From the IMG/VR virus record IMGVR_UViG_3300045988_009231, positions 1 to 12,256 of that record: a stretch of DNA of 12,256 nucleotides. One strand, given 5' to 3'. This DNA comes from a virus. Shown here piece by piece: positions 1 to 12,256 of this stretch. How positions within the stretch are numbered: position 1 is the stretch's first letter; each line of letters opens with the position of its first letter. Below the pieces are notes generated by a model. It was not told where the DNA came from and ran no database searches. It saw only the letters and a list, made by a program, of their open reading frames with translations. The translations under genes were made by a program, and so were the position numbers.

Positions 1-14
1 GTATACAAACGACC

Positions 15-46
15 CATTTTTAACATTTCCCAACACATTTTTAACA
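15..46. repeat. Direct repeat CATTTTTAACA x2, 21 bp apart, near the terminus (mirror copy 12211..12242)
   Basis: CATTTTTAACA occurs at 15..25 and 36..46. The related TTTAACATT recurs at 111..119. Confidence 0.8.
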
Positions 47-60
47 GTTGTTAGCACAGT

Positions 61-91
61 TTGGCACGCTTTTTGCTGCGAGCCGTGCCAA
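61..91. other. Terminal-region hairpin / inverted repeat (mirror copy 12166..12196)
   Basis: TTGGCACG (61..68) pairs with CGTGCCAA (84..91) as a perfect 8-bp stem. GCT/AGC extends it with one bulged C. It is flanked by an A-run (91..96) and shows no terminator geometry in the direction of transcription. Confidence 0.6.
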
Positions 92-109
92 AAAAGCCGA
101 TGAAACGAA

Positions 110-137
110 GTTTAACATTTCGTTAACAAGGTTTAAC
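110..137. repeat. GTTTAAC x2, 21 bp apart, flanking a GTTAAC palindrome (mirror copy 12120..12147)
   Basis: GTTTAAC occurs at 110..116 and 131..137, with GTTAAC at 122..127. AACGAA/TTCGTT (104..109 / 119..124) can form a 6-bp stem. Confidence 0.7.
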
Positions 138-223
138 TGATGAGTAAATATGCAACATCGCCTGAGAAATCGCATAATTATTCGCTGCCTGTCGTCAGGT
201 GAAGCCGGGTGTTGCACATGCCT

Positions 224-286
224 GATGCCTGACGATGCCGATGTGATGCCCTGAAACTGGGTGTGACCCGATGTGTGCCCGATGTG
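224..286. repeat. Cluster of GATG-core short repeats in the GC-rich inner ITR (mirror copy 11971..12033)
   Basis: GATGCC occurs at 224, 234 and 245, and GATGTG at 240. CCCGATGTG occurs at 267..275 and 278..286, 11 bp apart. Confidence 0.7.
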
Positions 287-316
287 CGCACGCCTGACGT
301 ATCTTATGCAGCTTAT

Positions 317-370
317 GCCACCATCGCCACATAAGCCACATAAGCCACATTCGCCACCAACGCCACCTGA
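317..370. repeat. Six tandem 9-bp repeats GCCAC(C/A)NNN (mirror copy 11887..11940)
   Basis: The array reads GCCACCATC GCCACATAA GCCACATAA GCCACATTC GCCACCAAC GCCACCTGA, head to tail. A seventh GCCACC starts at 381. Confidence 0.9.
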
Positions 371-397
371 CGTAAAATAAGCCACCTACAGGGCATT

Positions 398-436
398 AAA
401 AAAGACCCCGTGGGCAATTACACCACACAGGGTCTT
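398..436 (-). terminator. Intrinsic terminator of the leftward operon, located inside the left ITR
   Basis: The minus-strand RNA is AAGACCCUGUGUGG-UGUAAUUG-CCCACGGGGUCUU followed by UUUUAAUG. That gives about 13 bp of stem with one bulge. It lies 21 nt downstream of the tail gene stop codon (457..459). Confidence 0.8.
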
Positions 437-456
437 ACAAGGGCACAGGGCTTATT

Positions 457-2685
457 CTATAAGGTGAAGCCGTTGCGCAAAATGTTTATAATAGTGTTAA
501 CATCGTCAGTCAACATGTTTGTGGTGTCTGCGAATTTAACATTCACCATCTTTGTGAAGCCTGAAACGTCTTTGACCTTAGTAAGACGTGAAGAAGCTGT
601 TTCAACGCCTGTACTTGTGATAGTCTTCTTTTGCAGAACGATGTAAGGTGTCAGACCCATCAGGTAGGTTGAATCGAACTTAGAACCGCCGATAACCTGA
701 ATCTGCTGTTTCTGTGTTCTGAAAAGAACATCGCTGCATGGTTCGACTTCTTTAGTCCATACGATTCTGTCGTCACAGGTCATAACATAGACACCACCGC
801 CACCGATCAAATTAACTCTCAGTTCAAGTGAAACTGTACTTCCTATCAGGTCAACAGGCAACGTTTCAAGACCGATGAAAGGCACAAACAGGTTCAACTC
901 TGTATCATAGTCGGCTGTGCTCTGTGTCACGTTTGGAATCTCAACAGAACCGAATGAAAGAACCTTTGAATCAGAAGCCAAGTTATAGACGGTCGTATCA
1001 ACCATAAAGTTACCACACATCAGCTTCGATGAAGACCCCTTGTCAACCTGAAAGAAGAATCTTTTTACCCTGTTGATATAGTCGCCAAGGTCGTAAGAAA
1101 TAGGGTCTTCTTTGGTGCTTCCAACATCGCCTGTATATTGCACAAATCGGGCGGTCGCAAAGTCTTCAAGATTCTTTTCGTTCAACACATAAGCATTGAT
1201 GAATCCATACTTCTTTGTCGGTGTTGACTGTGGATTTGCCACACCATCAACTATGATGTACCAATCGTCACGGTCTGCGCTTCCAACTGTTGGCGTTATT
1301 GTACCTGTTGCGGTCAACTTGTCTTCACTTATCGTCATAGGTACGATATAGGGTGTCGCAAATTGTGAATAGCCTGTAAGTTTACACTTGTCAGGTTCAT
1401 CAAAAACGTTACCGCTATCAGCATTTAACGTGATAGTAAGCGGTTCGCCAACGAAACAGTATGTCGGCTGTGCAACAGGTGTGCAGCCTGTCAGGGTGTA
1501 ATCTATACGAATAGCCTTTTTAGATTCACCTGAGATTACAACAGGGCTGTTGAAGTCCACGTCAGGCAAAGTCACAGAAGCGTTTGACGTAACATTGTCG
1601 GTGTCCTTAATATCATCGACAACAACGTTAACCGTTACAGGTACGTTCTTACTGCTTCCATCTGTTGAAACGTATGCACAGGACACATTCAGCATCACCT
1701 TTTTAGAAGACAGGTTCACAGTCACAGAATGACCGTCCACGGTGTGTGATTCCGTTGAATCAGGCACATTGTTGGTTACTGTCGGCTCTGTAGGCGCAAC
1801 AGGTTTCGGTTTCGTGTTACCGTCCAAGGAAACGATGTATTTCAGGTCTGAAATCTCAGCAGTCGCCACCGTATTTTCACCGTTCACAGTAGTTGGAACA
1901 AACGTCTGCTGTCCTGATGTGTTGACGTATGTAACCGTAGGTACACCGTCAAAGACAAGTCCATCGTTACAGGTAATCGTAACAGTTGTCGATTCTGAGA
2001 AAGGGTCTTCTTCTGTAGTGTAGGTAGCACCTGAGATATTATTCTGTGGCTCTGGAATCACTTCCTTAGTACTACCGTCCAACGTAGCATAGCCACCATA
2101 AGAAGCTGTCGCAAGTGTGAACGTGGCAACGTTACCTGAAACGGTCATATTTTCCGTTGTTCCTTCTGAGAAAGGGTCTTCAGGGTCTGCACCATAAGTT
2201 ACTGTCGGCACACCGTCAAAGGTGAATCCATCATCACAGGTCAACGTTATAACGGTATTGCTTCCACTTGTCTTTGTCTTGTATGTGGTGTGTGCAACGT
2301 TGTTGGTCACGTTTAATGTAGGCACAGGTGCGGGGCTTCCACCACTTGCTTTTACATAACAGTCGGCATCGCCCATATATCCTGATGGGAAACTGAATCT
2401 TCTGTGCAGAAACGTACCGTCACTTGTTATTCCTGACTTTTCGCCATTAATAACAAGTTGGTCTTCTTCTGGCGAAACCTTAGTAAGGTTCATATAAATA
2501 GGCACCCACCTGTCGTTATAGTACATTTCAATTTTACAGGCGGCATCGTTTTCCACGAAAGTGCAACCGTTAACGGCTTCCGCTTTTATATGACACCACG
2601 TTGCACCGTCATTATAAAATGTCTTGTCAGAACCTTTGTCAGTACATCTTTCAAAGTTATAATTGATGTTGTAAGTACTTGCCAT
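457..2685 (-). CDS. Tail / receptor-binding protein (742 aa) with tandem beta-sandwich repeats and a conserved-looking C-terminal domain
   Basis: Long ATG-initiated ORF whose start overlaps the upstream stop (TAATG at 2683..2687). Two repeats of about 88 aa carry ...T(V/I)T(L)TC(D/N)DG(F/L)xFDGVPTVTY... (aa ~128-212 and ~217-300). Further Thr/Val/Asn-rich Ig-like segments run to aa ~480. The C-terminal ~250 aa form a distinct domain (FVPFIGLETLPVDLIG...). It is the last gene of the structural module. The function is inferred. Confidence 0.7.
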   Translation of the reverse strand: MASTYNINYNFERCTDKGSDKTFYNDGATWCHIKAEAVNGCTFVENDAACKIEMYYNDRWVPIYMNLTKVSPEEDQLVINGEKSGITSDGTFLHRRFSFPSGYMGDADCYVKASGGSPAPVPTLNVTNNVAHTTYKTKTSGSNTVITLTCDDGFTFDGVPTVTYGADPEDPFSEGTTENMTVSGNVATFTLATASYGGYATLDGSTKEVIPEPQNNISGATYTTEEDPFSESTTVTITCNDGLVFDGVPTVTYVNTSGQQTFVPTTVNGENTVATAEISDLKYIVSLDGNTKPKPVAPTEPTVTNNVPDSTESHTVDGHSVTVNLSSKKVMLNVSCAYVSTDGSSKNVPVTVNVVVDDIKDTDNVTSNASVTLPDVDFNSPVVISGESKKAIRIDYTLTGCTPVAQPTYCFVGEPLTITLNADSGNVFDEPDKCKLTGYSQFATPYIVPMTISEDKLTATGTITPTVGSADRDDWYIIVDGVANPQSTPTKKYGFINAYVLNEKNLEDFATARFVQYTGDVGSTKEDPISYDLGDYINRVKRFFFQVDKGSSSKLMCGNFMVDTTVYNLASDSKVLSFGSVEIPNVTQSTADYDTELNLFVPFIGLETLPVDLIGSTVSLELRVNLIGGGGVYVMTCDDRIVWTKEVEPCSDVLFRTQKQQIQVIGGSKFDSTYLMGLTPYIVLQKKTITSTGVETASSRLTKVKDVSGFTKMVNVKFADTTNMLTDDVNTIINILRNGFTL

Positions 2686-3116
2686 TATCTATTACCTTTA
2701 ATTGTTATCATAACTATTGAACCGTCTTCACTCAGTTCATTCTCAGGAAACGGAATCTTCTGCTTCTGCGTCCTTACATCACAGACAGGCTTGTAATCGT
2801 CATCATACTTGTTAGGTGTGTCTGTGGCGTAAATCTCGCCTGTAGCTTCAAGAATCTGTTCCTTGAATGTCGTCAGGGAATCACAGGACAAAGACAGAAT
2901 CGCCTTGTCACCGTCATATCTTACGGAATCAATAAAGTAATAACGTCCTATTGATTCAACGTAGCACATCGTGAAGCCTTTGACTTCACCACGCACACAA
3001 ATCTCAGGGTTTAAGAAGCCCATCTGTGAAATCTTGCCTGAGATAGTAACAGGGTCGCCAAGAACCTTGTTTATCTTGTTGCGTTCACCATTGTATTTAT
3101 AAAACAGAATATCCAT
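2685..3116 (-). CDS. Tail protein (143 aa) resembling the N-terminal domain of the phi29 gp9 tail knob
   Basis: ATG start at 3116, 1 nt after the upstream stop. The segment CYVESIGRYYFIDSVRYDGDKAILSLSCDSLTTFKEQI follows the pattern I recall at the phi29 gp9 N-terminus (...NKWFYAFV...FEIDVLQTW...). The match is from memory and was not aligned. Confidence 0.5.
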   Translation of the reverse strand: MDILFYKYNGERNKINKVLGDPVTISGKISQMGFLNPEICVRGEVKGFTMCYVESIGRYYFIDSVRYDGDKAILSLSCDSLTTFKEQILEATGEIYATDTPNKYDDDYKPVCDVRTQKQKIPFPENELSEDGSIVMITIKGNR

Positions 3117-3117
3117 A

Positions 3118-3498
3118 CTATTGTACCGTTATAGTTACAGAACCATTTAAATTAATGATTCCCTGAATTATTGCGTCCACGTTCTGGAAAGTATATTTTG
3201 ACTTTGATACAGAACCTTTCGCAAGATTACGTCCCACCAAGATGCAGCCCTTTGTGTCCTTTGGGTAGTTACCGGGGTGAATCATTATACCTGTGCGTCC
3301 GTTGACTTCAAAAAGAAACGGCATCTTTCGCCCGAACATGTTTGAATAGATATATCCTATTCTGTACGTACCTTTGTCAATACAAGGGTGGTTCACATTC
3401 TTAGGCGGTTCAAGAGTATCACACAGGTAAGTATCACCAAAGTACAGCTTACCAATAGTGTAGTGTTCATTCTGAAAAATTCTTTTTAGTACTAACAT
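3118..3498 (-). CDS. DUF5675-like / L,D-transpeptidase (YkuD)-fold protein (126 aa), putative peptidoglycan-acting enzyme
   Basis: Shows TIGKLY...CDTLE...KGTYRI...F...P.LF.V.GRTGIMIHPGNYPKDTKGCILVG. The H-x-GN-x3-DT-x-GC-ILVG signature with a His/Cys pair matches what I recall of the DUF5675 family, which is common in Bacteroidota and their phages. Confidence 0.6.
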   Translation of the reverse strand: MLVLKRIFQNEHYTIGKLYFGDTYLCDTLEPPKNVNHPCIDKGTYRIGYIYSNMFGRKMPFLFEVNGRTGIMIHPGNYPKDTKGCILVGRNLAKGSVSKSKYTFQNVDAIIQGIINLNGSVTITVQ

Positions 3499-3514
3499 AA
3501 CAAGTCGAATTTAA

Positions 3515-3553
3515 AGTAAAAACGGTGGCACACCGTAATAATGTACCACCGTC
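3515..3553 (-). terminator. Intrinsic terminator after the putative capsid gene
   Basis: The minus-strand RNA is ACGGUGGUAC-AUUAUUACGGU-GUGCCACCGU followed by UUUUUACUUU. The stem is 10 bp with one G-U pair. It lies 6 nt after the stop of the 391-aa ORF. Confidence 0.7.
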
Positions 3554-3558
3554 CAAAA

Positions 3559-4734
3559 TTAGGCAACAAAGAACACAACAAAGTTTTCGTTGGTGTCGTT
3601 GAAGTAACCGGCATCGAACTTGTAATAGTTATTGAAGAACTCTGCCTTTGCGTTGTAGTTGGTGGTTACTCGCTTGTCAAGGTTGCAAACACCAAGGGCA
3701 TCACGGTCGAACATCACACCGAGCACACCACCGATATTAATCTCGTGGTTTCCGCTTGTCTTGATGTTGATAGCAGAAGTATGAGCAAAGCCGTAATCCT
3801 GTCCACTACCTTGCCAAGAAGCAACGGTTTCAGCGTTTGGCAACAGAACCTGTTCCTTGTTGTAGGTGTCGGCATACAAGTAAGCCTGTGCGCCCTTTGC
3901 GAAATCAGACAACAGGACTGTGTGCAAAGCGTCCTTTGGTGTGAAACGCTCCTTGCCACCAACGTTGAAGAGTTTAGAGATAGACTGCAAACGGTCTGCG
4001 TACAAGCCCATCTGATAAGATGCAAAGCGAATAAACTCGCCATCGGTCAAGCACTTGTCTGCGGTCAAAGATGTGCCCTTTGCCTGATTGTAGAGATACA
4101 ACAGGTTCACGCAACGTACAGTAGAAGCAGAACCGTAGTTGAGGGTCTTACCTGATGTAGTGAACTTTGCTGCGTCTGCAAACAGGGTTTCACCAATCAT
4201 GTTGTTGATGGTGCGCATGATGAGGGCATCGGTCTTGATAGTCATAGACTTCTCAACTGCTGAGTAAATCATAGACAAGAAGCCGTTCAACTGTGCTGCG
4301 CTGCTGAAAGATTCCTTGACCTGACGCTCTGTGATGGAAACAGGCACTTCAAAAGTAACCTTTGAGTTGAAGAACTTAGCAGACACAACAGGCTTGTGGA
4401 AAATGTCCTGTCTGTACTCTGTACCGTCTGTGAGATTCCAAGTGTCGTTTTCCTCAGCTGCTGGAATCTCTGCTGAAATCTTTTCAAGCACAGAACCGAA
4501 CTCCCAAGCATCCATCAGGACAGACGGAATCTTACCTGCATAAGGTCGGTTAACGAAAATCACCTTGCCGATGTGGTTTACAAGTGACTTCACGTAGTTA
4601 TCAACTGCACCTTGATTGAACACTTCGTTACCAAGGTCAACAACACCTGTGAGGTCTTCTTTAACGATGTCGGTCTTACCGAGTACCTCACCACTTACTG
4701 AATTAATCAGTTCATAAATCTGTTTTACTACCAT
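3559..4734 (-). CDS. Putative major capsid protein (391 aa)
   Basis: Large ORF in the structural block downstream of the portal and the 187-aa protein. It has its own downstream terminator and a size typical of small-podovirus capsid proteins. I recognised no diagnostic motif, so the call rests on position and size. Confidence 0.6.
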   Translation of the reverse strand: MVVKQIYELINSVSGEVLGKTDIVKEDLTGVVDLGNEVFNQGAVDNYVKSLVNHIGKVIFVNRPYAGKIPSVLMDAWEFGSVLEKISAEIPAAEENDTWNLTDGTEYRQDIFHKPVVSAKFFNSKVTFEVPVSITERQVKESFSSAAQLNGFLSMIYSAVEKSMTIKTDALIMRTINNMIGETLFADAAKFTTSGKTLNYGSASTVRCVNLLYLYNQAKGTSLTADKCLTDGEFIRFASYQMGLYADRLQSISKLFNVGGKERFTPKDALHTVLLSDFAKGAQAYLYADTYNKEQVLLPNAETVASWQGSGQDYGFAHTSAINIKTSGNHEINIGGVLGVMFDRDALGVCNLDKRVTTNYNAKAEFFNNYYKFDAGYFNDTNENFVVFFVA

Positions 4735-4746
4735 AATTTAAAATAA

Positions 4747-5310
4747 TTAATTATTATAAATACTTAATGTTAAATAGTCAACTAAACTTTTAATGATGTC
4801 TTCACGCACATTCATCAGTCTGGCACGATATTCGTCAAGCATAGCCTGTGTTACGTTACCGTTAAAGCCTGTACGTTCTGACGTACCTGATTCCGTTTCT
4901 GTGCGGTCTTTTGCGTTTGACTTGTCTTCTTTGGAATCTTCATTGAAGCCTGTATCGTTGAATGCTTTTTCGCTCTTAGTGATACCGTCTGTGTTCGATT
5001 CCTGTACCGTCACCGTCCTGTTGGTCGATGTGCTTTGAAGCACAGGTTTCAGGAAATCATACTTTTTGTTGAAGACCTCAAATTGACTTTTGAACGTATC
5101 AACGCACATGTCAAGAATCGCACCTGTGTAGTCCTTGCAGTTGGTTTCATTGAATGAATCAAGAACCGTCCTGTTACCGAACTTCACCAAAGCAAAGGTA
5201 TCGGGATTTGTTGCATCACCGAATATCTCAGCGTAAATTTCGGGGTATCTCTGTTTAAAGATTACCCCAAAAAGTTTATTATCACCTATGAATAATTCTT
5301 TGAATAACAT
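4747..5310 (-). CDS. Structural protein (187 aa): scaffold or head-tail adaptor / lower-collar candidate
   Basis: The ORF track starts it at a TTG (5316), but the first ATG is at 5310 (MLFKELF...). It lies between the portal and capsid genes. It has a polar low-complexity centre (TNRTVTVQESNTDGITKSEKAFNDTGFNEDSKEDKSNAKDRTETESGTSERTG) and a helical C-terminus. The function is positional inference only. Confidence 0.55.
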   Translation of the reverse strand: MLFKELFIGDNKLFGVIFKQRYPEIYAEIFGDATNPDTFALVKFGNRTVLDSFNETNCKDYTGAILDMCVDTFKSQFEVFNKKYDFLKPVLQSTSTNRTVTVQESNTDGITKSEKAFNDTGFNEDSKEDKSNAKDRTETESGTSERTGFNGNVTQAMLDEYRARLMNVREDIIKSLVDYLTLSIYNN

Positions 5311-5322
5311 AGTCAATACGAA

Positions 5323-6330
5323 TTAAGTTTCTTCTTTTTCTTCTTTTTCTTCTGTTTCAGAAGTTTCTTTGGTTTCTTCTGTTTCAGAAGTTTCTTCTGT
5401 TTCGGTCGTTTCTTTGGTTTCAGGTGTTTCTTCTGTTTCCTCAGTTTCAACCTTTTCTACGTCCTTAGACAAAGCCAAGAAGTTTTCATGTTCCAACTTC
5501 CAAGAAGAATTTAAGTCAACCCTGATGTCAGTACCGAACATGTCATTCACCTGTGCGAGTGCTTCACGTCTGCTGTTGAGCATGTTTTCAACGTATGGCA
5601 AAAGCACGTCCACATTCATGGAAACCTCACCGAGATTCAGGCGTTCACGCTTCATATTGTAGTTGGCGTTCAAGCCAAGTTCGTTTAGCATTGAAGCCCT
5701 GTAGTACTGCACCAATTCAACAAGCTGTGTGATGTACTGGCTGTTTGAAACGTTTGCGGTCTGCATCGAAACACCCTTGAAGAAACTGTTTTCACCGATG
5801 ACTGAGAAATCACCATTCAGAATCTTTTTCAGGAACTCGTCTGCACTCTGTTTGGTCTTGTCGTCAGAAGCACTTATCAGCATAGTGATTCTTGTCAGAA
5901 TTGAAGCTGTGTTCAACGAAATAAGACCATCTGTGTAAAGAACCGCATATTTGCCTATGATAGGCAACAGGCTTTGACCGTTGGTGTCGTTTTCCATAAG
6001 AACGCAATCAGAACCGATTCTGAATGTCTTGTTCAACTTCAACCAAGGATTTGCCACGATGTAATCAAGTGGTCGTCCGTATGCGTCCTGTTCACCACCT
6101 GTAGAACCGCCAAGGGCGTACAGGGCATCGCCTACCTTTGCTATGGCACAGTTACCGGATTCCTGTAACAGGCGTTCAAGTTCCACCTGTGGAATCGTTT
6201 CAGGCAGACCGTCATACTTGAACATCGACTGAGTGATAGCCAGAGTATGCTCCATAAAAGACGTTACAGCTACGTCCTTTGTCTTCACCTGTGCCTGATA
6301 TTTACTGTATATGTTATCTAACTTCTTCAT
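5323..6330 (-). CDS. Portal / connector protein, phi29 gp10-like (335 aa), with a polyacidic C-terminal tail
   Basis: MFKYDGLPETIP...LERLL, NDTNGQSLLPII and especially LNELGLNANYNMKRERLNLGEV parallel the phi29 gp10 segments LFEWENLPPTIN, NDMAFPTTPTLE and [20 protein letters not shown] as I recall them. The size is close to gp10 (309 aa). The last ~44 aa are almost entirely E/T/K. Confidence 0.85.
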   Translation of the reverse strand: MKKLDNIYSKYQAQVKTKDVAVTSFMEHTLAITQSMFKYDGLPETIPQVELERLLQESGNCAIAKVGDALYALGGSTGGEQDAYGRPLDYIVANPWLKLNKTFRIGSDCVLMENDTNGQSLLPIIGKYAVLYTDGLISLNTASILTRITMLISASDDKTKQSADEFLKKILNGDFSVIGENSFFKGVSMQTANVSNSQYITQLVELVQYYRASMLNELGLNANYNMKRERLNLGEVSMNVDVLLPYVENMLNSRREALAQVNDMFGTDIRVDLNSSWKLEHENFLALSKDVEKVETEETEETPETKETTETEETSETEETKETSETEEKEEKEET

Positions 6331-6521
6331 TTTACCAAAGTTTTAATTAATGTGCAAAGTTCCGTCAAAACTTTCGTGTTTGCTTCGACTGTTGCATTTA
6401 ACTTGTCAGTCTCTTCTTTGTGCTTGTCTTCCTGTTTAATCATAAAATAAAACAGGGCGACACAGACAGCTATCGGAAAGCCAACGTTGCTGATTAATGA
6501 TGTAACTTCGTCCATATTCAT
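6327..6521 (-). CDS. Small single-pass membrane protein (64 aa), YvrJ-like; holin or lysis-accessory candidate
   Basis: The track's 83-aa version starts at a GTG (6578) upstream of the promoter -7 box. The ATG at 6521 (MNMDEVTSLISNVGFPIAVCVALFYFMIKQED...) fits better. It has one hydrophobic helix followed by a charged helical tail. The LISNVGFPIAV motif resembles the YvrJ family as I recall it. An ATGA overlap joins it to the portal start. Confidence 0.6.
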   Translation of the reverse strand: MNMDEVTSLISNVGFPIAVCVALFYFMIKQEDKHKEETDKLNATVEANTKVLTELCTLIKTLVK

Positions 6522-6545
6522 AAATATATTATTTTTAAATTTTTG

Positions 6546-6572
6546 CAAAGATACGAATAAATATTCGTATCT
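6546..6572 (-). promoter_or_regulatory. Internal promoter -7 box (TATCTTTG) embedded in a 24-bp palindrome (candidate operator)
   Basis: The minus strand carries TATCTTTG (plus-strand CAAAGATA, 6546..6553), matching the Bacteroidota -7 consensus TAnnTTTG. AGATACGAATA-AA-TATTCGTATCT (6549..6572) has 11-bp perfect arms. There is no TTTG at the -33 position. The box lies 25 nt upstream of the ATG at 6521. Confidence 0.55.
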
Positions 6573-6586
6573 CCGCACGATTTACA

Positions 6587-7708
6587 TTATTTAACACTTA
6601 AAATGTTATTCTTTGTACTTGTCATAATATAATTACGAACAATTTCACCGATTTCGTTGCTCTGATAGAACACCTTGTCGGTCACAAAGAAGCGTGAAAC
6701 CTTTGCTTCAAGTTCGGTTGCAGAACTTATCAGCTTTCGCTTGTAGTTCGGTCGTCCGTTCATCGTAAGCGAATAAATCAGGCTGTTTTCTGTGTCCTTG
6801 ATAGGTGTCGTCTTTGCGTGAATGTAGGTGAAGCACTCATCGTCAACCTGAATGATGTTTGCCTGTAAGACCGTACCGTTGAACTCTATGAAGTAAGTAA
6901 ACAGAACGTCTTTCGGCTTGTACTTACGTGGTAAGTGAGGGTAAGCTGCCAACTCCCATTTACCGCCCGTAATCATCTGCAAAGCCTCATTCCCGAAACA
7001 GAAGTACTTGTTTGACGGCTTTTCCTTTTCCAAGGTGTCGCAATACTCAACCGCCACCGTTGCACCGTCTTCACCGAAACGATACAGGTCGATGTTTCCC
7101 TGTGGCATGTTCTGAATGTTGTCAAGTCCCATTTCACCAAAGTAAGGACAGAACTTGTTCACAGTATTGCCAAGCATGAAGACCCTGACGTTTGAACGGT
7201 TTCTGATGATAGTACTTAGAACGTTCATAAACAGCATAAACTCATCAGGCAAGTAATAACGTCTTGTGATAAACTCATCGAACACCACCGTAGTTATCAT
7301 CGGGTAGCTTGTTGACTTATCGTGTTCCTGTTCTGAAAGACAGAAGCCATAACAGAACGGCTTATCGTCAGGGAATCGTTTTCCCTTGTCACGGTCGTAG
7401 TAAGACAAGAACCATTTACCCGAAAGATAGAAAACTTCGTTGTACTTACCTTTCGTTACCTGAGAAACGAAACCGTTTGCAACATGCCCTGAAAACAGGG
7501 ATTCTGCACGTTTTCCCCTCAAGTCTTCACGCCATCTTCTGACGTATGCACTCTGTTCGCCTGTTTCAACGTAGTTGATAATCATGTAAGCCAAACAGGC
7601 ATAAGTCTTACCGTTTGAACGTTCACCGAAAATGATATTGTAATCGGCATTCTTTTCCAAGATTCCAGATAAACTGTAATACTTTGGTTTTTTACTTTTT
7701 CCAAACAT
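6587..7708 (-). CDS. DNA encapsidation (packaging) ATPase, phi29 gp16-like (373 aa)
   Basis: Walker A is GERSNGKT and Walker B is TVVFDEF. NIIFGERSNGKTYA...GEQSAYVRRW and VVFDEFITRR...IIRNRSNVRVFMLGNTV parallel the gp16 segments FVIGARGIGKSYA...GEQFIYVRRY and IVFDEFIREK...VFRNRERVRCICLSNAV as I recall them. Confidence 0.9.
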   Translation of the reverse strand: MFGKSKKPKYYSLSGILEKNADYNIIFGERSNGKTYACLAYMIINYVETGEQSAYVRRWREDLRGKRAESLFSGHVANGFVSQVTKGKYNEVFYLSGKWFLSYYDRDKGKRFPDDKPFCYGFCLSEQEHDKSTSYPMITTVVFDEFITRRYYLPDEFMLFMNVLSTIIRNRSNVRVFMLGNTVNKFCPYFGEMGLDNIQNMPQGNIDLYRFGEDGATVAVEYCDTLEKEKPSNKYFCFGNEALQMITGGKWELAAYPHLPRKYKPKDVLFTYFIEFNGTVLQANIIQVDDECFTYIHAKTTPIKDTENSLIYSLTMNGRPNYKRKLISSATELEAKVSRFFVTDKVFYQSNEIGEIVRNYIMTSTKNNILSVK

Positions 7709-7713
7709 AACTA

Positions 7714-9906
7714 TTAATCTTTAAATTTAATACCCATTAAAAAGTTCAAATACATAACAGACAACGAAAGTGAATAACCTGTTGCTTCAAGATGCACGCC
7801 TGACAGTTCGTGGAACTCACAGGCTTCACCAAGGTAATCAGTCAACACTCCCTGTTGCTCATAGTCGATGTAGGTGTGAATGTTCTTGCCTGTCGCCTGT
7901 GGCGGTATAGACAAATAGTTGGTAAACGCTTCAAAGATTCCGTCCTGTCCGTAAGTTTCAAGAAGCCACGGAACTGCACTTTTCTTGTTCACACCGCTAA
8001 CCGTAAGAGATACCGGGTAACTTTTACCGCCAACGGTCAAAGCGTCTTCTTCCTCAACCATATATCGCTTTGCGCCAAGGGTCTTGAATCGGCTATAGAC
8101 ACCCTCAAAGTCCCAAACACCCATCAGCTTGTTTACACCTTTGATGGTCTTAGGCTCAAACAGTTCAAAGGAAATTTTATGATGCTTTGCAGCCTGTCTG
8201 AGTTTATATTCCACCATATTGTTGTATTCCTTGAAGTACTGTTCGTGTGCCTGTCCGTTCTTCAACTTCACTGAATCGGTGTCCGAATAGATGTAATCGT
8301 CACCACATTCATAGATGCCTGTAAACAAGTTTCTTCTTGCATAAGCGGTTACGAAGACACCCCAAGGGTAAAACAGGAATCGGTTACGGCTGTCGTTGTA
8401 CTTGACAAGTGTTTCGTTTATCTCATCGGCTGTCAGGTGCGAAACGTCCCAATCACCGTTATACGTAAATTCGTCACGCAAAGGATTCGTCACACACATG
8501 CCATAACAGCTATTCAGCATTTCCTTACTGTTTAGATATTCCACTTCCTTACCTTTCACACCTTTCAAAGTTGTCTTGTTGGCGTACAGGTGAAGAATAG
8601 ACTTCACGAACTCTGTTGGCAAATACGCTTTCTTGTAACACCACATGTCAACCACTTTTTCTTCTTCCCAAGTGTAGAACATCTTGAAGACGTTATAGTC
8701 AACGTTTGTGATAGTCGTCACTACCCTGTCAGCAGAAAAGACCCTACCGTTGTTTTCCACCACGTTTTCCTTGTAGAAGCACTTTGAAACAGACAAGGGC
8801 GTGTCCTGTACCTGACAACTCATTATCTTTGTAAATTCGATGTCGAAGACGCAACAGTAAGCAGACAGGAAAAACTCAAATTGCTTCTTGCTTTTCACTT
8901 TAACATGCACGCCCGAACTCATCGGAAACTGTTCTGCAACCATCACATAAGGGTAACTGCTTGTGAAGTCATAACTGCTCACATTTTCGATTACATCGTC
9001 TGTGTGATTCGCATTCGCATGTGTGAAGCCACCACTAAAAGCCCTTTGAAGCGTGTTGAACTCATCAGCACCACTTATGTTCAAATCGTGAATCGTGTTT
9101 ATGTAAGACCAATTCTGCACGGTCTTCCCGAACTCGTCTTCACAGTACAGACAATGTTTACGGCAGTACTTCCTGACGAAACCTGTCTTTGTAATCGGTA
9201 AATGCGTTATGCCCTTATAACGTTCTATCATTTCCTGAATATAGCACATCACCACTTTTACGTCATTCAGGCAATAGCCCATTTCTTTTTCCGTCAGGGG
9301 TGTTTTACTGTGTCGCAACAGGGAATAGTCCAAGTCACCGACCATCTTTTCGCATTTATACTTCATAAGTTGACCGCCCAACTTAGCCAAGGAATAACCT
9401 GACAACAGGTAGCTACACCGGAACTCTATACCGGATTCCGTTATTGCGTAAATCGGTTTTCTCAGGTCTATTGAAAATACCTTGTTCCACGTGAAACGGT
9501 TTCTGATAAACTGAAACTCATAGGACAGGTTGTGAACGTAAACTATCAAACGTCTGTCTTCTGACAACTGTAGGTAATCAGAAATCGTTTCCATCATTTC
9601 GGTAAACTCTTCCCATGTACGACCGACTATACAGTAACCGTTTATGCCAAATTGCCAAACATACATACAGGAACACTTTTCCAACTTCACACCCAGTTTC
9701 ACATACTGCTCATAAGACAGGTAATTGTCGCCACACTTGTAGAAAGAAGACGTTTCTATGTCAAAGCATACAGGAATATCAAAGAACTTTTGTTTCTTGT
9801 TATTCCCACGTAAACAGGAATCGTCAACCGCCATGTCAAGAACTGCTGTTATGTCTTTTGGTGAATAGACTTCATCGTGCAAACAAAAATTCTTCTTCTT
9901 TTTCAT
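7714..9906 (-). CDS. Protein-primed family B DNA polymerase (730 aa)
   Basis: Motifs present: Exo I FDIETSS; Exo II HNLSYEFQF; Exo III YCLNDVKVV; motif A YDFTSSYPYVM; motif B KEMLNSCYGM; motif C IYSDTDSVKL; and KxY as GAKRYMV. Motif order and spacing match phi29-type polymerases. The genome has ITRs and an adjacent upstream terminal-protein candidate. Confidence 0.95.
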   Translation of the reverse strand: MKKKKNFCLHDEVYSPKDITAVLDMAVDDSCLRGNNKKQKFFDIPVCFDIETSSFYKCGDNYLSYEQYVKLGVKLEKCSCMYVWQFGINGYCIVGRTWEEFTEMMETISDYLQLSEDRRLIVYVHNLSYEFQFIRNRFTWNKVFSIDLRKPIYAITESGIEFRCSYLLSGYSLAKLGGQLMKYKCEKMVGDLDYSLLRHSKTPLTEKEMGYCLNDVKVVMCYIQEMIERYKGITHLPITKTGFVRKYCRKHCLYCEDEFGKTVQNWSYINTIHDLNISGADEFNTLQRAFSGGFTHANANHTDDVIENVSSYDFTSSYPYVMVAEQFPMSSGVHVKVKSKKQFEFFLSAYCCVFDIEFTKIMSCQVQDTPLSVSKCFYKENVVENNGRVFSADRVVTTITNVDYNVFKMFYTWEEEKVVDMWCYKKAYLPTEFVKSILHLYANKTTLKGVKGKEVEYLNSKEMLNSCYGMCVTNPLRDEFTYNGDWDVSHLTADEINETLVKYNDSRNRFLFYPWGVFVTAYARRNLFTGIYECGDDYIYSDTDSVKLKNGQAHEQYFKEYNNMVEYKLRQAAKHHKISFELFEPKTIKGVNKLMGVWDFEGVYSRFKTLGAKRYMVEEEDALTVGGKSYPVSLTVSGVNKKSAVPWLLETYGQDGIFEAFTNYLSIPPQATGKNIHTYIDYEQQGVLTDYLGEACEFHELSGVHLEATGYSLSLSVMYLNFLMGIKFKD

Positions 9907-10541
9907 TATAGACCAAATTTCTTTAAAGTGCTCATTATTCCGCTTTTAATGCTGTTGGCATAGTCCAACACATTCTGTGCGTCTTTTTCCAAGTCCTGTT
10001 CTATCGCCTGTTCCAACCTTGCAGCGTCTGTTTCTATTTGGTCTGAAACGTCTGCGGCTTCTGTTTCAAGCTCACCTGTGAAGTCCTTGTATCTCATCAG
10101 GTATTGTTCCACGAAGTTTTCATCAGACACAGACAAGAACTTGTCCTGAATCTTCTGTGCCATCAGGTCGAACTCGTCTTCTGTCAGGTCGTAGGCATCC
10201 ATCAGGTGCTTGTTATACTCTCGCACACCTGTGGCGGTCGATGTAGGCTGTCGCAAGAATCCGACTGCCTTTGCATATTCTGCTTTCAGGTCTTCCCAAC
10301 TGTGCTTCATCGAAAACTTTGTGAAGCCTTTGATGTCGCCCTTGTTCAACGCCATAACTGCTGGCGATACAAGACCCTTTGATTCGATGTTCTGAATACG
10401 TCTGTTAGCCTGTTGAAAGATTCTTCTTATCTCAGCTTTGTACTCAGGTGAAGCCATCTTTGCTTCAATGATTCTTTGCTTAATAACCGCTTTGTTGAAA
10501 GAAAACGTTCTTCCACTAAAGCCTATCGGATTCATTCCCAT
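9906..10541 (-). CDS. Terminal protein candidate (211 aa)
   Basis: It lies immediately upstream of the polymerase and is translationally coupled to it (TAATG overlap at 9904..9908), as gene 3 and gene 2 are arranged in phi29. KAEIRRIFQQANRRIQNIESKGL resembles the phi29 terminal-protein N-terminus KAEYARLVKNTKAKIARTKKKYG as I recall it. The C-terminal half is acidic and Ser-containing (FLSVSDENFVEQY). Confidence 0.55.
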   Translation of the reverse strand: MGMNPIGFSGRTFSFNKAVIKQRIIEAKMASPEYKAEIRRIFQQANRRIQNIESKGLVSPAVMALNKGDIKGFTKFSMKHSWEDLKAEYAKAVGFLRQPTSTATGVREYNKHLMDAYDLTEDEFDLMAQKIQDKFLSVSDENFVEQYLMRYKDFTGELETEAADVSDQIETDAARLEQAIEQDLEKDAQNVLDYANSIKSGIMSTLKKFGL

Positions 10542-10547
10542 AACTTC

Positions 10548-10587
10548 TTAAAATTAAAGGGCACACCTAAAAGAATAAGTGCGCCCT
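10548..10587 (-). terminator. Intrinsic terminator / attenuator between the 117-aa early gene and the replication genes
   Basis: The minus-strand RNA is AGGGCGCAC-UUAUUCUUUUAG-GUGUGCCCU followed by UUAAUUUUAAG. The stem is 9 bp with one G-U pair. It lies 17 nt after the 117-aa ORF stop. The U-tract is interrupted, so termination is probably partial. Confidence 0.65.
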
Positions 10588-10603
10588 ATGTGTGAAACTT
10601 CAA

Positions 10604-10957
10604 TTACTTGTTGATGTCAACGAAGTTGATGCCGTAGCATGTCTTTGCGTGTGACTCGTAAGTGTAGATGGTGTAACCTACCTTGCCGTCCTTGATAGCC
10701 TGTACGGCTTCACCGTTGGCAAGAATCTCACGGAATGTCTCGCCAAGATGCTTTGGCATGTTTACCAACTTCTTTGCCTGTACGTCAATCACTACAGGTG
10801 AATCACCCAGAGCCGAACCGTGAACGTACAAACCGTTGATAGGGTGAATCTCGTCAGGTGAAGAAGCCTTTGCTACGTCTGACAACTTGATGTACTCGTA
10901 ATCTTTGGTATCAATACCGAAAGAAGTCTTGTTGAATGTGTTACTGAAACTAAACAT
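10604..10957 (-). CDS. Early protein (117 aa), function unknown; candidate SSB or DNA-binding replication accessory
   Basis: Clean ATG ORF with composition like the other genes. It is followed by its own terminator and sits directly upstream of the terminal-protein and polymerase genes. I recognised no motif, so the function is purely positional inference. Confidence 0.6.
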   Translation of the reverse strand: MFSFSNTFNKTSFGIDTKDYEYIKLSDVAKASSPDEIHPINGLYVHGSALGDSPVVIDVQAKKLVNMPKHLGETFREILANGEAVQAIKDGKVGYTIYTYESHAKTCYGINFVDINK

Positions 10958-10997
10958 AATTGATAAAATTTAAATGTTAAACTTATTATAAACTGTA

Positions 10998-11156
10998 TTA
11001 CTTTTCTGATTCGATTCGGTCAATTAACCACTTTCTGAATCTGTTCACCTTGATAACGGCTTTGTCATCGCTGCACATTTCTTTGGTCTGCAACAGACCG
11101 TTTAATGCAGTCAAAGCGTTAAACAGGTTTTCCTGATAGTCGTTTCTGTCTTCCAT
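10998..11156 (-). CDS. Small early protein (52 aa), not in the supplied ORF track
   Basis: My hand translation of the minus strand is MEDRNDYQENLFNALTALNGLLQTKEMCSDDKAVIKVNRFRKWLIDRIESEK*. Its ATG overlaps the TGA of the upstream 65-aa ORF (TGATG at 11154..11158). It fills an otherwise empty 198-bp gap in a genome with almost no intergenic space. Confidence 0.6.
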   Translation of the reverse strand: MEDRNDYQENLFNALTALNGLLQTKEMCSDDKAVIKVNRFRKWLIDRIESEK

Positions 11157-11353
11157 CACTTCTGAATTTTAATGTAACCACTGTGATTTACCACCGTGGT
11201 GTCTGTTGTTACTATTACCGTGCGTCCCTGTGCGTCAACACTATGTGAAGTCTTGCAAGAACCAAAGACGCATAAAACTACAAAACTGATAATCGTCCAA
11301 AGGACAACTGCACAGGTGGATTCAACCACCTCAACTTTTTCTTTCTTACTCAT
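11156..11353 (-). CDS. Small membrane-anchored protein or lipoprotein (65 aa)
   Basis: The sequence is MSKKEKVEVVEST-CAVVLWTIISFVVLCVFGS-C-KTSH.... It has a 19-aa hydrophobic stretch ending in a lipobox-like FGS|C, followed by a short Thr/Val-rich beta-type ectodomain. Its ATG lies 8 nt inside the upstream ORF. Confidence 0.6.
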   Translation of the reverse strand: MSKKEKVEVVESTCAVVLWTIISFVVLCVFGSCKTSHSVDAQGRTVIVTTDTTVVNHSGYIKIQK

Positions 11354-11675
11354 CGCGGTACTTACTTTTGTGTTCGATAAACTTAGCCATCAGTCTGTTT
11401 TCTGACAAGAAGTCAAGAACAATCTGAAACTCTTTCTGTAACTGTTCCAACAACAGGTCGTCTTTCTTGTCCTGTATCAGAACCTCAGCAACAACATGTC
11501 TTGCATCGAAGACCGTATCGTTTACTGCATTCAGCAAATCTTTCTGCTCATCGGTCAAGTCCTTGCCGATAAAGTCCATGTCGTTGCAAGATTTGCATAA
11601 ACTCTGAAACACCGTCAAAAGTGCCTTTTCTTTGTTTTCTCTGTCCATATTGCCTAATTTTAAATTAAACTTCAT
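11346..11675 (-). CDS. First early protein (109 aa from the ATG at 11675), acidic and helical, function unknown
   Basis: The track starts this ORF at a TTG (11693) that lies inside the promoter -7 box. The first ATG downstream of the box is at 11675 (MKFNLKLGNMDRENKE...), and an alternative ATG is at 11648. Net charge is about -5. Confidence 0.6.
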   Translation of the reverse strand: MKFNLKLGNMDRENKEKALLTVFQSLCKSCNDMDFIGKDLTDEQKDLLNAVNDTVFDARHVVAEVLIQDKKDDLLLEQLQKEFQIVLDFLSENRLMAKFIEHKSKYRDE

Positions 11676-11690
11676 TTCTGAATCACGCTG

Positions 11691-11722
11691 CAAAGATACG
11701 GCGATTTTTTGAACCCACCAAA
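11691..11722 (-). promoter_or_regulatory. Early promoter, Bacteroidota type (TTTG-N20-TATCTTTG)
   Basis: The minus strand carries TTTG (11722..11719), a 20-nt spacer, then TATCTTTG (11698..11691). This matches the published Bacteroides consensus of -33 TTTG / -7 TAnnTTTG with a 19-21 nt spacer. It sits in the only unique non-coding segment upstream of the first gene, with an A-rich tract further upstream. Confidence 0.7.
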
Positions 11723-11758
11723 TTATTTTTGTTAAAATATCTTAATTGGCGATTTTTT
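11700..11758. repeat. Direct repeat GGCGATTTTTT x2 in the early control region
   Basis: GGCGATTTTTT occurs at 11700..11710, within the spacer of the early promoter, and at 11748..11758, a 48-bp offset. Confidence 0.7.
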
Positions 11759-11784: not shown

Positions 11785-12256
11785 CGGCTTCACCTTATAG
11801 AATAAGCCCTGTGCCCTTGTAAGACCCTGTGTGGTGTAATTGCCCACGGGGTCTTTTTTAATGCCCTGTAGGTGGCTTATTTTACGTCAGGTGGCGTTGG
11901 TGGCGAATGTGGCTTATGTGGCTTATGTGGCGATGGTGGCATAAGCTGCATAAGATACGTCAGGCGTGCGCACATCGGGCACACATCGGGTCACACCCAG
12001 TTTCAGGGCATCACATCGGCATCGTCAGGCATCAGGCATGTGCAACACCCGGCTTCACCTGACGACAGGCAGCGAATAATTATGCGATTTCTCAGGCGAT
12101 GTTGCATATTTACTCATCAGTTAAACCTTGTTAACGAAATGTTAAACTTCGTTTCATCGGCTTTTTTGGCACGGCTCGCAGCAAAAAGCGTGCCAAACTG
12201 TGCTAACAACTGTTAAAAATGTGTTGGGAAATGTTAAAAATGGGTCGTTTGTATAC
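11785..12256. repeat. Right inverted terminal repeat (472 bp, perfect)
   Basis: Mirror image of 1..472. The identical 114-aa ORF translations at 41..385(-) and 11872..12216(+) confirm identity over that span. Both window ends read GTATACAAACGACCC... when read inward. Confidence 0.97.
11821..11859 (+). terminator. ITR-borne copy of the terminator hairpin, oriented outward at the right end
   Basis: This is the exact mirror of 398..436. On the plus strand it reads AAGACCCTGTGTGG-TGTAATTG-CCCACGGGGTCTT followed by TTTT. No annotated plus-strand gene lies upstream, so any function here is uncertain. Confidence 0.45.

Follow-up and report, generated by a model that had tools for sequence, protein, structure and literature searches.

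Phages of the phi29 type replicate their linear DNA from both ends with a protein as primer, and the reiterated identical nucleotides at their termini, three in phi29 itself, allow sliding-back (PMC6266182). The inverted terminal repeat (ITR) of phi29 is only 6 bp long (AAAGTA), that of its Clostridium relatives 25-30 bp. In phi29 all promoters are of the sigma-A type, the early promoter C2 points inward near the right end, p6 nucleoprotein complexes are formed at the ends, and a prohead/packaging RNA (pRNA) is encoded at 147-320, next to the left end. We have analyzed the ITR of the IMG/VR virus record IMGVR_UViG_3300045988_009231, of which the whole stretch of 12,256 nt, from here on called the window, is a 12-kb phi29/Astrithrvirus-like gut phage. 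It shares with phi29 the protein-primed replication from both ends, the three identical terminal nucleotides, and the phi29-type capsid protein, connector and gp16 ATPase; it differs in that its ITR is 476 bp long, in that no counterpart of the pRNA was found in the window and in that the ITR carries a motif of the sigma-54 (RpoN) type.

The nearest cultured phages are those of the Astrithrvirus group, which have genomes of about 11.5 kb, Gram-negative hosts, the same gene order and a polymerase about 45% identical to that of the window (Pectobacterium phage DU_PP_III, Acinetobacter phage Phanie and Salmonella phage astrithr were compared). They resemble the window in their genome size of 11-12 kb and in the length of their ITRs, of which one, annotated "long terminal repeat", has 219 bp and another 171 bp. 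Inward promoter-like sequences are found within or at the inner edge of these ITRs, and early genes point inward at both ends. Long promoter-bearing ITRs were thus already known in the nearest cultured phages, and length alone is no surprise. However, the Astrithrvirus termini begin with GGG, those of the window family with AAA; the promoter-like sequences are of the sigma-70 type (TTGACG-N17-TAGAAT) without a sigma-54 motif, and the ITRs have less than half the length of that in the window and lack its GC-rich hypervariable arrays. A remote faecal relative also has sigma-70-like promoter sequences in or just inside its ITR and no sigma-54 motif. Since both carry sigma-70-like sequences at this place, an origin plus an inward early promoter looks like a shared design in which the class of the promoter differs. 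Adenovirus, whose protein-primed linear genome ends in 100-200-bp ITRs with a core origin, factor sites and a GC-rich variable inner part, can serve as an analogy only: it is a eukaryotic virus relying on the host factors NFI and Oct-1, its ITR is not homologous to that of the window, and it has no such promoter function.

The stretches 1-472 and 11785-12256 of the window are complementary to each other at all 472 positions, and the two arms add up to 944 of 12,256 nt (7.7%). Each arm contains an exact sigma-54-type -24/-12 motif, TGGCACGCTTTTTGCT, which matches TGGCACG-N4-TTGCW in 12 of 12 positions (0.01 expected per window). Exact matches are found in the window in the two ITRs only, at both ends pointing inward. 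From this motif and from the comparison given below we propose, with moderate confidence, that the ITR is composed of a protein-primed origin and a sigma-54-dependent inward early promoter, behind which come regulatory or stuffer repeats peculiar to the clade and a captured gene end. The comparison started from 232 related stretches in IMG/VR, to which further clades were added by a motif scan; more than 110 related genomes from at least four clades were compared and were given locus labels of the type L001.

In at least four clades the first copy of the motif begins at nt 66 from the physical end, within flanks that vary. In clade 2 the motif stands 2-6 times in tandem amid variable flanks, clade 4 has a second inward copy per arm that lies beyond its perfect ITR of about 101 nt in diverged, non-identical sequence, and the more distant L221 and L227 have copies at both ends. 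When copies were detected by TGGCAC alone and the -12 element was scored at N5, TTG[CT] was present at exactly this spacing in 119 of the 134 distinct inward terminal contexts, versus 10 of 165 interior and 0 of 28 outward ones. Conservation around TGGCAC collapses beyond the -27 to -11 block, and variation falls on the degenerate positions of the consensus (spacer and W) and on C or T at -12. The tandem copies, the second copies in clade 4, the copies in L221 and L227, the N5 spacing and the variation at degenerate positions together show that the motif itself is under selection.

The same core, TTGGCACG-N4-TTG(C/T)(T/A), is found in the sigma-54 promoters of Flavobacterium psychrophilum SM4, which have been mapped by their transcription start sites, include TTGT at -12 and have a typical motif given as TGGCACGnnnnTTGC (PMC9723704). 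A second paper cites sigma-54-dependent grpE and groES for B. thetaiotaomicron (PMC12316311). The known Bacteroidota sigma-54 promoters serve genes of the chromosome, namely those for chaperones, proteases, gliding and the envelope, and the enhancer-binding proteins are encoded in the same genomes; in the window family, by contrast, the motif lies 65 nt from the end of a linear phage DNA, is duplicated by the ITR and in sister clades stands in tandem. Use of sigma-54 by phages has seldom been reported. As sigma-54 depends on an ATP-dependent activator of the host, such a promoter would let a lytic phage tie its early programme to the signalling of a Bacteroidota host, in which sigma-54 controls chaperones and proteases. 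A predicted promoter of the sigma-54 class at a constant distance from the DNA end, throughout an abundant gut phage family, is what is new here, and the combination of this class with a fixed position at a DNA end is undescribed as far as the literature searched shows.

An earlier note on this DNA, made from the letters alone, had reported the length of the ITR and its share of the genome, an AT-rich outer part followed by a GC-rich inner part, motifs phased 21 bp apart plus a hairpin, short inner repeat arrays and the lack of any Bacteroidota-type promoter box. All of this was confirmed: the GC content is 37.8% at 1-180 and 55.0% at 181-400, the phased repeats lie at 12-53 and 104-137 with the hairpin at 60-92, an array of period 9 and over-represented short motifs are present further inward, and the Bacteroidota sigma-A box TAnnTTTG is absent from both arms. 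The note had looked for the Bacteroidota sigma-A box only and so overlooked the perfect sigma-54-type motif; nor did it recognize in the innermost approximately 80 bp the terminator and 3' end of the tail gene. Matches in a generic sigma-70 scan (351-378) were no better than chance and were discarded.

The terminal nucleotides were deduced from the relatives. In L014, L018 and L030 the TruSeq adapter is joined directly to AAAGGTATAC, in members of other clades (L052, L055, L076 and L153) it is fused to the equivalent termini, and many other related contigs start with AAAGG; straight after the adapter the 5' ends read AAAGG or AAATATG. Judged by these adapter junctions and contig starts, the physical end is 5'-AAAGGTATAC, both ends of the window lack 4 nt, AAAG, and the ITR really measures 476 bp. 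The AAA terminus, seen in the ends of relatives, agrees with the sliding-back rule of two or three identical bases or more. L119 is also listed among the contigs whose ends retain the TruSeq adapter, and Nextera mosaic ends are present on the public IMG/VR contigs L032, L049, L068 and L132.

The terminal approximately 82 nt follow a common plan in at least four clades despite differing ends (AAAGGTATAC, AAAGGTACGC, AAAGGTACAC and AAATATGCAC): AAA, a C-run, two TTTAAC boxes and then, at nt 66, TGGCACG-N4-TTGCW. In the window TTTAAC begins at 19, 40, 111 and 132, always on the inward strand and at about 45 times its density in the genome, so that two 21-nt-phased pairs stand on either side of the sigma-54-type motif; in most motif copies TTTAAC starts 22 nt upstream of TGGCAC. 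The phase is also evident from the 21-nt repeats (12-32 versus 33-53; 104-116 versus 125-137) and from the lag-21 autocorrelation of 1-184, which was equalled in 2 of 500 shuffles. The phased boxes would fit a protein bound to one face of the helix. Of the roles considered in the earlier note, those of a replication origin or nucleoprotein scaffold are supported to this extent: the outer AT-rich module behaves as would a conserved origin or nucleoprotein element. The hairpin at 60-92 arises from an inverted copy of the -24 box. A further inward-oriented TTTAAC is found outside the ITR at 11731-11736 (minus strand), immediately before the -33 element that belongs to the sigma-A promoter.

Comparison with the relatives divides the ITR into modules A (1-184), B (185-300), C (301-375) and D (376-472). 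Modules A and D diverge at the rate of coding sequence (91-100% identity, in relatives 93-98% identical in genes); in genomes otherwise 93-97% identical, only 27-84% of the bases of modules B and C are preserved. The ITR of clade 4, which has the gene order of the window, is only about 101 bp long, and arrays B and C are absent from it as from other sister clades with this gene order; across the clades compared, only the outer approximately 100 bp are conserved. The earlier note had concluded that this DNA must be maintained by strong selection; for the 472 bp as a whole this is not upheld, since B and C are hypervariable, differ between arms and are missing in relatives; the note had itself stated that relatives with short ITRs, no arrays and the same genes would speak against it, and for the arrays such relatives have largely been found. 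The comparison splits a minimal end module of about 100 bp from dispensable accretions, which is of use for the design of minimal protein-primed replicons and for the calling of ends in viromes, where contigs are truncated or bear adapters, and which advises caution over ITR lengths.

Module B (61% GC) has no single period but is rich in short motifs (CCTGAYG 4 versus 0.05 expected, CGATGTG 3 versus 0.05); it is absent from the close relatives L005 and L012-L031, and in L009 one arm has a 22-nt unit more than the other. In module C the period-9 array (317-367) gave a lag-9 signal reached in 0 of 500 shuffles, and a short hairpin shows compensatory changes among subclades. Where B and C sit in the window clade, the ITRs of clades 2 and 3 each carry, on the inner side of their last sigma-54 motif, 2-5 copies of a dyad, TGTTTCACGTGGAACA, of the form TGT-N10-ACA (L032-L080 and L096-L192; e.g. 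at 211 and 253 in L071); no such dyad was found inward of the motif in the window clade. The dyad is probably the operator or enhancer of a regulator. Since B and C occupy the site of these dyads, we think it most likely that they are either repeats peculiar to the clade to which proteins bind, as at an enhancer or operator, or stuffer that the phage tolerates, rather than a conserved machine. Palindromes related to TGTTTCACGTGGAACA are also present near the ends of the remote relatives L201, L211 and L226, and L221 and L227 have 4-7 interior copies of the dyad as well. A single TTTCAYRTGVAA dyad lies at about 9485 in the polymerase gene, at the same place in most genomes of the window clade, which may reflect coding constraint.

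The inner end of the ITR lies within a gene. The last five codons and the stop of the 742-aa tail gene belong to the repeat, and 20 nt past the stop there follows on the minus strand a canonical intrinsic (rho-independent) terminator (-24.5 kcal/mol, z = -3.1). The single mismatch in its stem is C.A if read on the plus strand but G.U on the minus strand, and Watson-Crick pairs are regained in variants. In L010 the tail gene has a different 3' end and the ITR is correspondingly shorter, while the right end keeps the old ...TATAAGGTGAAGCCG sequence; in L009 the repeat extends 10 nt further inward. These two patterns argue that the inner boundary is historical, a copied gene end, and not functional. 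The tail gene of L010 is unrelated (no blastn match to 473-2685), while in the polymerase/ATPase and early regions L010 and the window share 92-96% identity; this looks like a swap of the receptor-binding module, after which the right end holds a fossil of the old gene end. The statement of the earlier note that the ITR has no credible coding capacity thus has to be amended by the tail-gene end at 457-472, and otherwise stands: the open reading frames 41-385 (minus), 195-350 (minus) and 410-646 (plus) were rejected as genes because of implausible translations and GTG starts, and indels among relatives (e.g. the 22-nt unit) are not multiples of 3, which also counts against coding.

In the scheme that we favor the outer approximately 100 bp would be the functional core common to the whole phage family. 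The 5'-AAA terminus would permit sliding-back initiation of protein-primed replication, the two TTTAAC boxes, two helical turns apart, would probably be bound by a phage replication or architectural protein, and directly after them, at the fixed distance of 65 nt from the end, would lie the inward sigma-54 promoter. Since the motif sits in the ITR, the host sigma-54 RNA polymerase would be aimed inward from both ends, from the right end at the entire gene cluster, upstream of the Bacteroidota sigma-A promoter, and from the left end at the inward genes of the sister clades or, in the window clade, at the tail gene in the antisense direction. Clades 2 and 3 have 1-5 inward-facing genes at the left end, among them one for an M15-type peptidase and in L114 one for a C5 methyltransferase, which a promoter borne by the ITR would serve. 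The remainder of module A (93-184), with two more TTTAAC boxes and two hairpins, is peculiar to the window clade, and arrays B and C evolve fast by slippage or unequal exchange. The innermost approximately 95 bp are the tail-gene 3' end with its terminator, of which, as we infer, a copy reached the right end through end-to-end repair or through recombination; the terminator faces outward at each end and would there stop transcription from entering the origin.

Several points weigh against a sigma-54 promoter. Among the distinct inward TGGCAC contexts that have a -12 element at N5, about 40% carry TTGT in place of TTGC. In L005 the -24 box of the left end, at the equivalent of 62-68, reads TAGCACG, the sole exception seen; the change from GG to AG would inactivate a sigma-54 promoter and may be either an error in the sequence or a knockout of natural origin. 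Sigma-54 requires an ATP-dependent host activator; the 65 bp upstream of the motif are unusually little space for an enhancer, and neither a site nor a gene for a sigma-54 enhancer-binding protein was identified (the phage proteins were searched by Pfam and PHROG), the TGT-N10-ACA dyads of clades 2 and 3 and arrays B and C of the window being candidate enhancer sites that are suggestive only. Tandem promoters 48-58 bp apart are unusual, the left-end promoter would in the window clade yield antisense RNA only, a sigma-A promoter already serves the first gene, the motif lies in a block that is conserved anyway, possibly as a replication element, and the bins of metagenome-assembled genomes (MAGs), with scattered labels (Melainabacteria, Prevotella, Clostridia and others), were uninformative as to the host.

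Two other explanations of the repeat have to be considered beside the sigma-54 promoter. TTGGCACG-N4-TTGC could be the site of a phage replication, packaging or architectural protein, or the sigma-54 holoenzyme could form on it a stable, non-productive closed complex by which the ends are marked or protected, or by which sigma-54 is titrated from host genes. The position within the conserved terminal 82 nt, beside the phased TTTAAC boxes 22 nt upstream of most copies, would agree with this, as would the arrays of 2-6 copies, the inverted copy of the -24 box after the motif in several clades, the lack of an identified enhancer and the presence of a separate sigma-A promoter. We nevertheless regard it as unlikely, because a 12/12 match to the consensus is very improbable by chance, the copies vary at degenerate positions as in the mapped Bacteroidota promoters, the orientation is always inward, relatives have sigma-70-like promoter sequences at the same spot, and the spacing of the downstream inverted arm varies, which speaks against a fixed dimeric protein site. 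As for arrays B and C, they could be without sequence-specific function, filler generated by slippage that is tolerated and homogenized between the arms of a protein-primed replicon. Their hypervariability relative to the genome, the differences in copy number between arms, the absence of module B from L005 and L012-L031 and of both arrays from other clades speak for such filler, and an 11-nt sequence at the start of module B, AGGTGAAGCCG (197-207), recurs without change as the final 11 nt of the ITR (462-472) at the tail-gene end, so that array B may have been seeded by duplication of the ITR junction. The units of module B in relatives open with the same GTGAAGCC. Short motifs are, however, retained while the copy number shifts (GCCAC every 9 nt; GCCTGACG), the hairpin of module C has compensatory changes across subclades, and clades 2 and 3 have dyad arrays at the same position; we take filler to be a serious possibility, though one against which we incline. 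A Chi-like role of the GTGGC repeats in protection from exonucleases, with which their orientation would agree, was not adopted since it is unneeded at protein-capped ends.

A structured RNA was among the roles suggested in the earlier note; if non-coding and encoded by the ITR, it could be, for example, a packaging RNA like that of phi29. A gp16-type ATPase and a phi29-type connector are present, the ITR is essentially the sole non-coding space of at least 110 nt, the folding z-scores range from -2.2 (plus strand) to -3.1 (minus strand), and some mismatches are G.U on the minus strand only. Rfam, however, gave no match, pRNA (RF00044) included, at E ≤ 1 on the window and E ≤ 10 on the ITR alone, these permissive thresholds bringing up sub-threshold chance matches only (SmY, snoZ199 and SdsR); the terminator and a single palindrome account for most of the low free energy; the outward strand yielded no promoter; and clade 4, with the same motor proteins, has in its ITR of about 101 bp no room for such an RNA. 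A predicted leader structure at 86-190 (plus strand) was dropped after RNAalifold had given -6.96 kcal/mol with a covariation term of +0.14, that is, no covariation. We therefore consider such an RNA very improbable. Even less credible is that the long ITR is an assembly artefact, by fold-back or extension, a result that the earlier note had named as fatal to its claim. In many related contigs the "ITR lengths" coincide with assembler k-mer sizes (55, 99, 119 and 141), and a collapsed de Bruijn node would yield identical arms; the perfect identity of the arms is indeed partly a property of the assembly (a collapsed repeat). But the k-mer-sized cases are truncations of contig ends and not extensions, more than 15 related contigs extend to the same inner boundary, the independently assembled L009 and L016 share this boundary with slightly different arms (309-444 nt), which shows that the length is not due to extension, and the adapter junctions fix the outer end. 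In L061 (clade 2) a perfect ITR of 868 bp with six tandem sigma-54-type units was found, for which expansion during assembly is possible.

Beyond the sigma-54 promoter as such, we put forward as a speculation of low probability that an uncultured gut phage family of at least four clades has hard-wired docking sites for the host sigma-54 into its replication termini, so that early transcription is gated by the host. A host enhancer-binding protein of stress or proteostasis signalling would then gate early transcription from both ends and possibly origin activation, and the fast-evolving arrays (GCCAC and GCCTGACG; TGT-N10-ACA elsewhere) would be the matching host-specific enhancers. In a variant, the multi-copy sites would titrate the scarce sigma-54 and thus cripple the sigma-54 regulon of the host. 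The features discussed are listed in Table 1.

Table 1. Coordinates of the ITR elements and of neighboring genes and signals in the window.
Feature	Position	Strand	Basis or remark
Left ITR (true length 476 bp; terminal AAAG absent from the window)	1..472	+	100% arm match; adapter-terminus junctions in relatives
Right ITR, reading inward on the minus strand	11785..12256	-	arm match
Terminal origin module: (AAAG)GTATAC, C-run, TTTAAC boxes at 19-24 and 40-45 (21-nt phase)	1..58	+	kept in at least four clades
Inverted repeat TTTGGCACG / CGTGCCAAA around the -12 region	60..92		3' arm conserved, spacing variable among clades
Sigma-54-type -24/-12 motif TGGCACGCTTTTTGCT, inward; predicted start near 88-91	62..77	+	exact consensus, conserved position
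Right-arm copy of the sigma-54-type motif, aimed at the whole gene cluster	12180..12195	-	exact consensus
Second TTTAAC pair (111, 132) and hairpins 104-124 and 142-183	104..183	+	conserved in the window clade only
Module B: 61% GC, hypervariable short motifs CCTGAYG, GATGCC, CGATGTG; units e.g. GTGAAGCCGGGTGTTGCACA	185..300		closest subclade only
Module C: imperfect palindrome 303-345 and GCCACnnnn 9-nt array (317-366, plus 381)	301..375		copy number varies
Intrinsic terminator behind the 742-aa tail gene, with a stem of 15 bp (436->402) and U6 (401->396)	396..436	-	fold
742-aa tail/receptor-binding gene; stop (457-459) and last 5 codons (457-472) inside the ITR	457..2685	-	open reading frame
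Holin	6327-6521		Pfam/PHROG searches
Protein-primed family B DNA polymerase, enzyme acting on the ITR ends	7714..9906	-	Pfam/PHROG and Astrithrvirus similarity
211-aa putative terminal protein	9906..10541	-	position only; homologous to astrithr gp02 (E = 1e-9)
Bacteroidota-type sigma-A promoter TTTG-N20-TATCTTTG	11691..11722	-	shortly beyond the inner edge of the right ITR; precedes the first gene (ATG 11675)

All 14 credible genes are carried by the minus strand and span 457-11693; the unique region has 42.2% GC and is 97.3% coding. Profile searches identified the phi29-type major capsid protein, the connector and the gp16-type packaging ATPase, and the polymerase was recognized as a protein-primed family B enzyme (PF03175 DNA_pol_B_2, E = 2.8e-12; phrog_1907, E = 2e-73). 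The putative terminal protein had no match in Pfam, in a sequence search of the PDB or in a search of terminal-protein families; its homologue astrithr gp02 sits upstream of the Astrithrvirus polymerase. Pfam and PHROG revealed no DNA-binding regulator or activator among the early proteins and only the holin turned up. Neither transfer RNA nor transfer-messenger RNA genes were found in the window, and megablast of the whole window against deposited phages gave no match.

The genes of the window have no Shine-Dalgarno sequences, and this, together with TTTG-N20-TATCTTTG before the first gene, looks like the expression signals of Bacteroidota, from which the phylum of the host is tentatively deduced. 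In the GTDB genome collection complete or near-complete genomes of the family (L198-L229) are found in MAGs labelled Melainabacteria, Gastranaerophilales, Prevotella, Christensenellaceae, Bifidobacteriaceae and others, which are likely to be contaminated with the phage. MT836125.1, considered as a second Bacteroidales lineage, has Shine-Dalgarno-like and sigma-70 signals and no sigma-54 motif; it was set aside as it provides no independent test.

In about ten genomes of clade 2 (L034, L041, L043, L046, L047, L051, L068, L076 and L077) there is a further sigma-54-like antisense match directly downstream of the packaging ATPase gene, at about 5280-5400 in locus coordinates. The connector of the window ends in an acidic low-complexity tail of about 45 residues, ETEETEETPETKETTETEETSETEETKETSETEEKEEKEET (5323-5450), and the contigs of several truncated relatives break within nucleotide repeats that resemble those of this tail. 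Strong terminator-like hairpins are present on the minus strand also at 3520-3554, after the capsid gene, where a TAATTTTG box (3554-3561) overlaps the hairpin, and at 10558-10587, after a 117-aa early gene; together with the terminator of the tail gene they suggest three transcription units.

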